Shown here piece after piece: positions 50,495 to 56,441 of a DNA stretch of 64,000 bases (position 1 is the stretch's first letter; every line of letters begins with the position of its first letter). The notes under the pieces were generated by a model, which had not been told where the DNA came from, ran no database searches, and saw only the letters and a program-made list of their open reading frames with translations. Source of the stretch: a virus; IMG/VR virus record IMGVR_UViG_3300006793_000017, positions 27,814-91,813 of that record. One strand, 5' to 3'. Position numbers and translations under genes: made by a program.

Positions 50495-50956
50495 ATGTCA
50501 AAATTAAAACTAAATGAAATACTAGCATCTGTGGATATGAATGCAAAACATATCTGGGATGAGCTTACAGAAGAACAACGTAAGAGTGTTGTTTTCTTCA
50601 CGCTTAATCGCTATATAAGCAACGTACAAGGGTCTAGAGAACTAAAGGAGCATTATGTACTGCTAGGCAATGAACGCTTTAATAAGAACCTTTTCCTGCT
50701 GTTAAACAAGCATAATAAATTACTATGGCAACTAGCATGTAGTTGTGGTCATGAAGAAAAGAATATTCATAGACACGAATGGTTAGGACTTAAAAGAGAA
50801 AAGAATAAGAAAGAAGAATTTTTAAAGAAGATATTTCCTGACATGAAAAGTGCAGACATTTCTGCATTAGCAGTAATGACAGATAACAAAGAAATTAAAG
50901 ATCACTGTAGAGGTCTTGGTTGGGATAAGAAACAGATCGATGCAATTAAATTATAA
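50495..50956 (+). CDS. Possible clamp-loader small subunit (gp62-like)
   Basis: Helical, FTLNRYIS, W..K pattern reminiscent of gp62; weak. Confidence 0.4.
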   Translation: MSKLKLNEILASVDMNAKHIWDELTEEQRKSVVFFTLNRYISNVQGSRELKEHYVLLGNERFNKNLFLLLNKHNKLLWQLACSCGHEEKNIHRHEWLGLKREKNKKEEFLKKIFPDMKSADISALAVMTDNKEIKDHCRGLGWDKKQIDAIKL

Positions 50957-51623
50957 ATGTGATTACTGCGGCAAAGCATTTGCAAAGGAGAAAACTTTGT
51001 TTGTGCATGTGTGCGAGCCTAAAAGGAGGCACTTAGCAAAGAATGAAAAGCATGTGCAGTATGGCTTACTGACATTTAAAAAGTTTTACGAATTTAATCA
51101 ACCAAGTGCAAAACCTAAAACGTTTGATGACTTTGTTGGTAGTCCTTATTACAATGCATTTGTTAAGTTTGGTAGTTTTATGGTTAATACAAATCCTATA
51201 TACCCAGAAAGGTTTTTAGAGTTTGTAGTTAAGAGTGGCATCAAATTAGATCATTGGTGTAGAGATGAATTGTATGACACATACATAAAGGAATTATTAA
51301 AAATAGAACCAGCTGATGGTGCTATACAACGTAGTGTAAAAACTATGATGGACTGGGCAGATAACAACGAAGCGGAATGGAATCATTACTTTAGTTACTG
51401 TAATTTAAATAGAGCAACACATGATATTAAAGAAGGAAAGATTAGTCCTTGGATATTATTAAATTCAAAGGCAGCTAAGGACATGATGCAAAACATGTCA
51501 GATGAACAATTAAATATTATTGGGCCTGTTCTAGATCCTAAGTACTGGATGATTAGATTTAAGAAACTTCCAGCAGATGTAGAACTAGTAAAAGAAGTAA
51601 TCAAAGAAGGTAACATATCGTGA
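50940..51623 (+). CDS. Hypothetical protein with N-terminal C2H-type zinc finger
   Basis: YKCDYCGKAF...HVC. Confidence 0.6.
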   Translation: MQLNYKCDYCGKAFAKEKTLFVHVCEPKRRHLAKNEKHVQYGLLTFKKFYEFNQPSAKPKTFDDFVGSPYYNAFVKFGSFMVNTNPIYPERFLEFVVKSGIKLDHWCRDELYDTYIKELLKIEPADGAIQRSVKTMMDWADNNEAEWNHYFSYCNLNRATHDIKEGKISPWILLNSKAAKDMMQNMSDEQLNIIGPVLDPKYWMIRFKKLPADVELVKEVIKEGNIS

Positions 51624-51799
51624 CAAAGACTAGAAAATTATTAAGCGGAAAAGAAGTACCACAACTTGAAAGAGTTGCTAACCTTAGTATAATAACAAAG
51701 TGTCCTGAGAAGTGGAAAATTGTTGATATGGAAACAGGACAAGAATACGTTGCTAGTGGAACACTTGAACTCTACAAGCAATGGAAAAGGATAAAATGA
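51620..51799 (+). CDS. 59-aa hypothetical protein
   Basis: GTGA overlap; TKCPEKWKIVDMETG. Confidence 0.55.
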   Translation: MTKTRKLLSGKEVPQLERVANLSIITKCPEKWKIVDMETGQEYVASGTLELYKQWKRIK

Positions 51800-51881
51800 T
51801 AATAGCAATCTTATTTTTACTATCATGCTACGCATTGCCGATATATATGTTAGTAAAAATGAATAACGAAGAACCAAAGTA

Positions 51882-52448
51882 ATGCCAGATATAGATATAG
51901 ATTTTGTAGACAGACAGAAAGCTCTAAAACATTTTAAGCATATTAGAGCAAGTCGTGTTGAAAACGGTAAACTAGTAAAACACAATACTGGTGTGTATAT
52001 GCATGAGGTTCCTGTTAGTGCTGAATTAAATTTGTGTAGTGTTCCGCATAAAGAAGCAGAAGATAAAGGTTATTTTAAATTAGACTTTCTTAATGTAAGT
52101 ATGTACAAAGATGTACGTAATGAAGAACACTTGCAACAACTAATAGATAAAGAACCTATATGGGATCTATTACAGCATGACGATTTCACAGATTTATTGT
52201 TCCATGTTAACGGTCATGGCGATATATTACGTAAGTTAAAGCCAACAAGTGTAGAGCAACTAGCAGCCGTACTTGCCATTATAAGACCTGCTAAACGCCA
52301 TTTAGTAGATGAGAGTTGGAATACTATTATGCAAGAAGTGTGGGAAAAGCCAACAGATGGTGCATACTTCTTTAAGAAATCACATGCTACTGCATACGCA
52401 GTTGCAGTTAAAGTGCAAATGAATTTGCTGTCAGAAGTAAAAGAATGA
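51882..52448 (+). CDS. Minimal DnaE-like (C-family polymerase palm) protein, 188 aa
   Basis: PDIDIDF, HNTGV, KLDFL, LAAVLAIIRP, FKKSHATAYA in correct order. Confidence 0.85.
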   Translation: MPDIDIDFVDRQKALKHFKHIRASRVENGKLVKHNTGVYMHEVPVSAELNLCSVPHKEAEDKGYFKLDFLNVSMYKDVRNEEHLQQLIDKEPIWDLLQHDDFTDLLFHVNGHGDILRKLKPTSVEQLAAVLAIIRPAKRHLVDESWNTIMQEVWEKPTDGAYFFKKSHATAYAVAVKVQMNLLSEVKE

Positions 52449-52561
52449 AATATTTGATTATATTAATACTGTTATCAGGTTGTGCTGCAAAGGATATTAA
52501 TTTCAATCCATGGACAACTGTATTAAATCAAATCATAAAGGCAGAGGGAGACAAAAAATGA
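52445..52561 (+). CDS. 38-aa lipoprotein
   Basis: MKYLIILILLSGC lipobox; ATGA overlaps both sides. Confidence 0.65.
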   Translation: MKYLIILILLSGCAAKDINFNPWTTVLNQIIKAEGDKK

Positions 52562-55430: not shown

Positions 55431-56441
55431 ATGACTCTGGTATTAGATAAATTTCGAACACTCGTGCCTTCACGTGCTAAAGCTAGTCCTTCAGGTTGGA
55501 CAAGTTTTAACGCACCGTGTTGTTCTCATCGAGGTCATTCTCCAGACAAACGTAAGCGTGGCGGTTTGAAATTTGATATGGGTGTAGTGTATAACTGCTT
55601 TAACTGTAAGTACAGTGCAAGTTGGGAACCAGGTAGACCTTTATCAAATAAGTTCAAAAATTTATGTAGATGGTTAGGTGCTAACGAAGATGATATCAAT
55701 CAAATGATATTTGAAGCACTTAAAACTGAATCACCAGAGTACACTCCGCGAGAAGTTTCTAGCACAGTTACGTTTACGCCTAAAACATTACCAGAGGGTG
55801 CTTTAGCAATACGTGATTGGTTAGAAGCTGATCTCAACGAGGATGAAGAAGCTAGTCTAGCAGAAGTAGTTAAGTATCTACTAGAAAGAGATTGTGATCC
55901 TGTTAGCAAACACTTTTATTGGACACCACTTGAAGGATACAAAGATAGAGTCATTATCCCATTTTGGTACAAAGGAAGTATTGTAGGATCAACTGCTAGG
56001 AAAGTTAAAGATGGCAGACCTAAATACATTTCCGATCATCATCCACACTTTGTCTATAACGTTGACGAACAAAAGGAAGATCAGAAATATATATTTGTAA
56101 CAGAAGGACCGTTTGATGCACAAGCCATTGGCGGTGTAGCGTTGCTTACTAATAATATTCACGAGCAACAAGCAAGGATTATTAATAGTTTAGGTCAAGA
56201 AGTTGTCGTTATCCCAGATCAGGATAGTGCAGGTGTCGAGCTCATTAACAAGGCTGATGAGTGTGGTTGGCATGTTGCTTTTCCTAACTGGGGTAGTGAT
56301 GTAAAAGATGTTGCTGATGCAGTTAAACGTTACGGTAAGTTGTTTGTACTAGTAGACGCAATGAAAACAGCAGTGCAAGGCTCTATTAAGTTGAGTGTTG
56401 CTAAAAATAACTTTGAACATAAGTTGGAGAATATGCAATGA
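55431..56441 (+). CDS. DNA primase (gp61/DnaG-like)
   Basis: Zn ribbon (CC...YNCFNC), RVIIPF, TAR, PKY, TOPRIM VTEGPFDA and PDQD.AG, KDVAD. Confidence 0.88.
   Translation: MTLVLDKFRTLVPSRAKASPSGWTSFNAPCCSHRGHSPDKRKRGGLKFDMGVVYNCFNCKYSASWEPGRPLSNKFKNLCRWLGANEDDINQMIFEALKTESPEYTPREVSSTVTFTPKTLPEGALAIRDWLEADLNEDEEASLAEVVKYLLERDCDPVSKHFYWTPLEGYKDRVIIPFWYKGSIVGSTARKVKDGRPKYISDHHPHFVYNVDEQKEDQKYIFVTEGPFDAQAIGGVALLTNNIHEQQARIINSLGQEVVVIPDQDSAGVELINKADECGWHVAFPNWGSDVKDVADAVKRYGKLFVLVDAMKTAVQGSIKLSVAKNNFEHKLENMQ

Follow-up and report, generated by a model that had tools for sequence, protein, structure and literature searches.

Within an uncultured phage genome, an open reading frame encodes a protein of only 188 residues that carries the catalytic motifs of the C-family DNA polymerases, whose bacterial members exceed 1000 residues. 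The question raised by this locus is whether so short a polypeptide can be a complete catalytic core or is one part of a larger enzyme. The gene lies in a 64,000-nucleotide stretch of viral DNA, here called the window, which is part of an IMG/VR record of 91.8 kb estimated to represent about 25% of its genome. The analysis described below indicates that the protein is very probably one subunit, the C-terminal one, of a minimal C-family nucleotidyltransferase that is encoded by two genes and is typical of group 2.2 jumbo phages; it would be completed in trans by a second protein. The two proteins are referred to as the C-unit and the N-unit.

The open reading frame and its motifs

The C-unit of this split minimal polymerase III alpha (DnaE-like) is encoded at 51882..52448 on the plus strand and comprises the second half of the palm together with trimmed fingers. 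An in-frame TAA at 51864-51866 lies upstream of the start codon. The gene overlaps short open reading frames at both ends. Specifically, its start is shared within a TAATG sequence (51880-51884) with the stop of a 33-codon frame (51781..51882), and its stop is shared within an ATGA sequence (52445-52448) with the start of a 38-codon frame (52445..52561). The upstream frame would give a hydrophobic peptide of 33 residues coupled to the C-unit, and the downstream frame a putative peptide of 38 residues, the N terminus of which reads like a lipoprotein signal (...LLSGC...).

Five motifs are found along the protein. All are on the plus strand and in the order given by a previous sequence-only reading of the window, which had also described the 188-residue frame, the upstream stop codon, and the coupling at both ends correctly. 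The PDIDIDF strand (51885..51905, residues 2-8) contains two metal-binding aspartates, Asp-3 and Asp-5. It is followed by HNTGV at residues 34-38 and by KLDFL (52077..52091, residues 66-70), in which Asp-68 is the third catalytic aspartate. Two fingers motifs complete the set, LAAVLAIIRP (52260..52289, residues 127-136) and FKKSHATAY (52371..52397, residues 164-172), the latter corresponding to FNKSHSAAY at about residues 756-764 of Escherichia coli DnaE.

HMMER alignment with solved DnaE chains matched MPDIDIDF to residues 399-406 of the E. coli enzyme (PDB 2hnh), and Asp-3 and Asp-5 are therefore equivalent to Asp-401 and Asp-403. In the family profile alignment the Lys-x-Asp of KLDFL falls on Lys-553-Phe-Asp-555 of 2hnh, which makes Asp-68 the counterpart of Asp-555. 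The RP motif was placed by HMMER on about residues 639-640 (within ...ALFRPG, 633-641) and the KSH motif on about residues 758-760. The earlier proposal that these motifs carry the equivalents of the three DnaE aspartates is thus upheld.

Family membership and conservation

The C-unit belongs to PHROG 11778, annotated as "DNA polymerase" (197 positions), with an E-value of 8.5e-67 over 184 of its 188 residues. The alignment runs end to end, C-unit residues 3-186 matching profile positions 8-194. Pfam gave only a sub-threshold match to the finger domain. Homologues number at least 7956 when clustered at 90% identity, with lengths of 185-200 residues among the 120 listed. One homologue, 93% identical to the C-unit, is encoded on a contig of 346,813 bp. 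When 1.84 billion representatives were scanned exhaustively with HMMER, 420 clusters (50% identity) scored E ≤ 0.001; among the best 150 of these 420, complete homologues have 183-219 residues and shorter ones align partially. All 80 relatives on viral contigs are 186-195 residues long and start M-[PS]-D-x-D-x-D. The protein cluster of the C-unit spans Tara and other metagenome sources.

A tblastn search detected full-length counterparts (at least 80% query coverage) in 96 phage records, with identities of 32-53% among the matches listed. Almost all of these records are jumbo myoviruses of the RaK2/GAP32/121Q, PA5oct, XacN1, SCTP-2, and Atu_ph07 types. At the nucleotide level, megablast with 10 kb of the window found no match in the phage records. 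A full-length C-unit is also present in Alishewanella phage vB_AspM_Slickus01 (OQ508957.1; 32% identity, E = 2e-27). At 141,644 bp this genome is well below the 200-kb jumbo threshold, which means that the family extends somewhat beyond jumbo phages.

Across 89 diverse homologues (30-93% identity to the C-unit), Asp-3, Asp-5, Lys-66, Asp-68, and Pro-136 are invariant, and Asp-7, His-34, Gly-37, Arg-135, Lys-165, and His-168 are nearly so. By the Nei-Gojobori method, the median dN/dS ratio of 181 pairs is 0.12, and comparison with the nearest relatives gives 0.077. The low ratio, the constant length (about 185-220 residues in hundreds of clusters at 50% identity), and the invariant aspartates show that the C-unit is neither a remnant nor a pseudogene, in agreement with the earlier suggestion of a minimized protein retained under selection. 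That the gene is what is left of a decaying full-length DnaE, of phage or host origin, might be suspected from the small fraction of DnaE that is covered and from the sub-threshold Pfam match. This explanation is effectively refuted by the dN/dS of about 0.12 and by the thousands of homologues of the same length that begin M-P-D-I-D. The two findings that the sequence-only reading had named as refuting it were not obtained, in that relatives lack a full-length DnaE and the catalytic aspartates are conserved. The complete relative G001 contains a single PF07733 match, which is the N-unit described below, and no PHP domain was found in it. A search for homologues of 330-2000 residues likewise found no longer forms, which is weak evidence; the exhaustive scan did return a fusion protein of 375 residues (P0195, below).

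Predicted structure of the C-unit

The AlphaFold2 model of the C-unit alone has a pLDDT of 96.5. The first 16 PDB matches found by Foldseek are all C-family polymerases. In the VIA-align comparison the top 15 structural matches are again all of the C family, after which the Z-score drops from 6.1 to 3.1 and the matches are unrelated proteins. DnaE and PolC were matched with Z-scores of 9.0-9.5 and with 183-187 of the 188 residues aligned, the corresponding regions being Taq DnaE 461-837, E. coli DnaE 400-780, and PolC 971-1295. The C-unit thus has the hallmarks of the family, namely part of a Pol-beta-type palm, three catalytic aspartates, and the fingers motifs.

The 186 aligned residues extend over 381 residues of E. 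coli DnaE and 377 of the Taq enzyme, so that the 188 residues of the C-unit stand for about 380 of DnaE and some 195 of the 381 E. coli residues have no counterpart. This bears out the internal shortening proposed in the sequence-only reading. The deficit falls mainly in two places: about 89 residues are missing between the equivalents of Asp-403 and Asp-555, and about 88 between those of Arg-639 (RP) and Lys-758 (KSH). The first of these gaps would fit a lost thumb, a domain whose limits in DnaE are said to have been set out by Lamers and colleagues in 2006. The first residue of the C-unit is the equivalent of E. coli Met-399 and Taq residue 461, and nothing in the protein corresponds to DnaE beyond about residue 780. 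With the whole protein aligned inside E. coli residues 400-780 at half the length, PHP, thumb, clamp-binding, and OB domains are all lacking.

Taken by itself, this model could describe a functional catalytic core, that is, a stand-alone mini-polymerase or nucleotidyltransferase of 188 residues. All three aspartates and the fingers motifs are kept and invariant, the polypeptide is predicted to fold confidently on its own, and its gene is translationally coupled to local genes and not to that of the N-unit. However, the C-unit starts at the DxD strand and does not contain the G[GS] element. Pol-beta-type nucleotidyltransferases are defined by this NTP-binding element, and the polypeptide that carries the aspartate triad is without it.

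A separate gene encodes the NTP-binding half of the palm

The C-unit starts exactly where the GS/NTP-binding helix of the palm ends. The segment of DnaE just upstream of the DxD strand consists of the GRGS loop and a helix ending FERFL(N) (Taq 409-454). A separate open reading frame matching PF07733 was found in the cultured phages PA5oct (169 residues) and Atu_ph07 (177 residues) and in metagenomic relatives (156-188 residues). In PA5oct (NC_071039.1) this N-unit frame lies at about 187516-188025 and the C-unit at 143938-144540. These N-unit proteins cover only about positions 12-98 of the Pfam model, with E-values of 1e-10 to 1e-12. Their C-terminal part reads ...WGVGRGSSVxSY...(K/N)L(D/N)WxEFLR, with a uniform EFLR terminus, and an alignment of 44 sequences has 35 invariant columns. 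The family comprises at least 7985 clusters of 155-172 residues and is about as large as that of the C-unit.

When the N-unit profile was compared with Taq DnaE, profile positions 120-165 aligned with residues 409-454 (GRGS...FERFL), a weak match at E = 0.02. Against PDB sequences the profile gave no match at E = 0.01, and the GRGS segment was recovered only at a cut-off of E = 10; the assignment of the N-unit consequently relies mainly on PF07733. With the N-unit profile aligned to Taq 409-454 and the C-unit model beginning at 461, the two proteins are adjacent, non-overlapping pieces of one palm. The earlier view of the 188-residue protein as a whole catalytic core therefore has to be given up, because the G[GS] element resides in another protein, of about 160 residues, whose gene is far away.

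The sequence-only reading had also recommended looking for other pieces of DnaE, and such a piece was found, namely the N-unit of the relatives and of the cultured phages. Within the 91.8-kb record from which the window was taken, neither an N-unit nor a family B polymerase was found. Absence of the N-unit from this record is expected, because the record is a fragment of about 25% and, in relatives, over 100 kb separates the two genes. For the window itself the partnership is accordingly inferred from relatives (62-65% identity) and from cultured phages.

The sequences at the split point also bear on a different kind of two-gene arrangement, a DnaE in two parts that a split intein joins again through protein trans-splicing, in the manner of cyanobacterial dnaE-n and dnaE-c. 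DnaE is the classic natural host of split inteins, and the two phage genes are indeed far apart. However, the N-unit stops at ...EFLR right after the DnaE-homologous helix and the C-unit starts with MPDIDIDF. Intein sequence is absent from both ends, and they could not accommodate the roughly 100 residues of an intein N-fragment or the roughly 35 of a C-fragment. The linker of the natural fusion described below has only nine residues. Trans-splicing is hardly credible for this enzyme.

A conserved open reading frame of 108-119 residues was noticed within about 0.5 kb after the N-unit in PA5oct, Atu_ph07, and two metagenomic relatives (L003:2081-2407; L004:744-1079, minus strand; L086:893-1237, minus strand; L085:1986-2345). 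In PA5oct and Atu_ph07 one short frame lies between it and the N-unit. By eye, the predicted product resembles a GroES/gp31-type co-chaperonin (...GI(K/R)xRW(G/A/C)xV...).

A natural fusion of the two halves

The exhaustive scan returned one metagenomic protein, P0195 (375 residues), in which an N-unit, a nine-residue linker, and a C-unit follow one another in the order found in DnaE. Its N-terminal part is 37% identical to the N-unit of G001 (E = 6e-28), and its C-terminal part is 36% identical to the C-unit of the window. P0195 is a singleton cluster on a 2.4-kb (2415 bp) ENA contig, and no relatives of it were found in the viral contig collection.

The predicted model of P0195 has an overall pLDDT of 75.8, with values of 44-58 over junction residues 151-190; its alignment contained only nine C-unit rows, a shortage that is probably one reason for these modest values. 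Compared with DnaE, the fused model scores a Z of 12.1, above that of the C-unit alone. Weak matches (Z of 2-3) were obtained to SpoT, MenT, CCA-adding enzyme, Cid1, and Pol beta. These Pol-beta-type nucleotidyltransferase matches span residues 102-262, that is, both halves, and none was obtained for the C-unit alone.

These observations count against a self-sufficient C-unit. The G[GS] element missing from it is encoded by a co-occurring separate gene that is joined to the C-unit in P0195, and the nucleotidyltransferase matches appear for the fused model only, across both halves. We regard a 188-residue protein active by itself as very improbable.

Co-occurrence of the two genes and the replicase context

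In relatives and in cultured jumbo phages (PA5oct, Atu_ph07, and RaK2-like phages) the N-unit and C-unit genes are 34-186 kb apart. Both genes are present in four long relatives, G001 (100% complete) and G003, G006, and G007 (60-76% complete), at distances of 120-186 kb. An N-unit was not found in three partial relatives (45-79% complete). Among cultured phages, the separate searches for the two units gave coinciding tallies by host genus: Escherichia 34/34, Pseudomonas 11/11, Erwinia 8/8, Salmonella 8/8, Xanthomonas 4/4, and Klebsiella 11/10, where the Klebsiella list takes in two partial records. Surplus N-unit matches come from phages that have a full-length DnaE.

A family B polymerase of 887-901 residues is encoded in G001, G002, and G003. 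The check for a gp43-type replicase suggested in the sequence-only reading thus had a positive outcome in the relatives, whereas the window's own record, as noted above, has no such gene. In G007, a relative of L082, the N-unit (183133-183681) is followed, at a distance of about 2 kb, by an RNase_T/DnaQ-like exonuclease frame (C1:185787-186266, 190 residues, E = 4.9e-6). An exonuclease of this type was considered as a further partner and rejected; RNase_T was detected in only one of the four long relatives searched, and it is therefore not a conserved partner.

Genes adjacent to the C-unit

Two uncharacterized genes precede the C-unit on the plus strand. The first (50495..50956) encodes 153 residues from the ATG at 50495 and is 32% identical to the PA5oct gene in the same position. 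An Atlas lead to Phage_clamp_A, the family of the T4 clamp-loader small subunit, concerns 13% of one cluster only. The second (50940..51623, 227 residues) belongs to PHROG 11058 (E = 1.9e-60) and is 32% identical over 221 residues to the gene that immediately precedes the C-unit in PA5oct; its N terminus has a C2H2-like zinc-finger motif, with a zf-C2H2 match below the Pfam cut-off. Because both have counterparts in the same order in PA5oct, the two genes and the C-unit make up a conserved block of three. It had been proposed that one or both might complete the enzyme. As candidates for the missing half they were rejected, since comparison with the N-unit profile by hhalign gave probabilities of 0.2% for 50495..50956 and 1.2% for 50940..51623.

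About 3 kb downstream of the C-unit is a DNA primase of the Toprim type (55431..56441, plus strand; PHROG 47, E = 4.5e-32). PA5oct likewise shows the order of C-unit, structural gene, and primase, and at the matching place in Atu_ph07 a primase/helicase is annotated. Overall, the order of two uncharacterized genes, C-unit, structural gene, and primase plus helicase is common to PA5oct and, in part, to Atu_ph07.

This setting could point to a two-piece enzyme that serves neither DNA replication nor repair as a polymerase but is a non-replicative nucleotidyltransferase, engaged, for example, in primer extension or hand-off within the primase-helicase module, in template-independent tailing, or in synthesis of a nucleotide signal. 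The lack of thumb, clamp-binding, OB, and PHP domains would fit such a function, as would the full family B replicase already present in relatives and the conserved block a few kilobases from primase and helicase. However, the fingers motifs that contact template and dNTP (RP and KKSH) are kept and nearly invariant, which argues for the geometry of a templated polymerase, and no direct evidence of any other product was obtained. We consider a non-replicative role unlikely. About equally doubtful is a more elaborate proposal in which the distance between the two loci (34-186 kb) itself serves a function. An active site would then form only when both transcription units are on, a temporal switch, and the enzyme would be a specialized nucleotidyltransferase of the primase-helicase module and no second replicase. 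It would serve primer extension, hand-off, or non-templated tailing, in which the products of 50495..50956 and 50940..51623 might also take part.

Proposed mechanism

The data above establish the identity, fold, and conservation of the C-unit, the split point, the co-occurrence of the two halves, and one fused form. For the split C-family enzyme that we favor, physical association of the halves, polymerase activity, and biological role are inferred as follows. The C-unit would supply the β-strands with the three aspartates that bind two Mg2+ ions, and its finger residues (RP and KKSH) would close over the nascent base pair. The N-unit (about 160 residues, ...WGVGRGSSVxSY...EFLR) would provide, in trans, the GS loop and the helix that hold the triphosphate of the incoming dNTP. 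Non-covalent association of the two proteins would rebuild one active site capable of two-metal nucleotidyl transfer, most likely in short-patch templated DNA synthesis. Such a polymerase would have neither thumb nor clamp and would probably be distributive. It may act beside the family B replicase in an accessory role such as gap filling, repair, or primer extension.

If this model is right, the two proteins make up the smallest known module of a C-family polymerase, one that is naturally cut through its active site. Both halves are common, with about 8000 clusters each at 90% identity. The arrangement is relevant to two questions, how little a C-family polymerase needs for catalysis and what use a second polymerase is to phages that have a T4-type replicase. 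For the locus in the window, the outcome is that the supposed stand-alone catalytic core should instead be read as half of a split enzyme.

Comparison with known systems

The C-unit family has already been published. Iyer et al. (2021, Viruses 13:63, PMC7824862) described a "minimal, split DNA polymerase III alpha" in group 2.2 jumbo phages, composed of an N-terminal NTP-binding unit and a C-terminal unit that binds Mg2+ and template. In their account the split enzyme accompanies a family B polymerase, may serve in the synthesis of one strand or in repair, and is a proposed model of ancestral polymerase III. Weinheimer and Aylward (2022, PMC9123017) found that PF07733 marks a large cluster of marine jumbo phages. 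One or other of the two pieces is labeled "DNA polymerase III alpha" in several phage genome papers and records, whereas the PA5oct omics paper makes no statement on the two genes. No biochemical study of any member of the split minimal family was found in the literature. Since the split family is already known, the novelty of the present finding is low.

The C-unit of the window agrees with the enzyme of Iyer et al. in its length of about 190 residues, in starting at the DxD strand, and in being the Mg2+/template-binding part. In relatives the agreement extends to the distant N-unit locus and the accompanying family B polymerase. No structural difference was seen. Unlike the cultured members, the window copy comes from an uncultured phage and is at most 53% identical to them among the matches listed, and its partner lies off the available fragment.

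Bacterial DnaE and PolC (PDB 2hnh, 3e0d, and 3f2b) share with the C-unit the Pol-beta-type palm, the same three aspartates, the fold, and the RP(G) and (N/K)KSH fingers motifs. They differ in size, with more than 1000 residues against 188, and in having the GS half on the same polypeptide. The C-unit is also devoid of their PHP, distal fingers, clamp-binding, OB, and tau-binding parts.

Cyanobacterial split DnaE is likewise a C-family polymerase made from two distant genes. However, it is divided at another site, is a full-sized polymerase, and has its halves joined covalently by intein trans-splicing.

Pol X of African swine fever virus has a Pol-beta-type palm, consists only of the nucleotidyltransferase fold and fingers, and exists beside a family B replicase. 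As a viral repair polymerase of fewer than 200 residues (PMC11646218), it offers an analogy only in the way that the phage enzyme may work. Pol X differs from the C-unit in its family (X, not C), in being complete on one chain that includes a GS motif, and in that its activity has been demonstrated.
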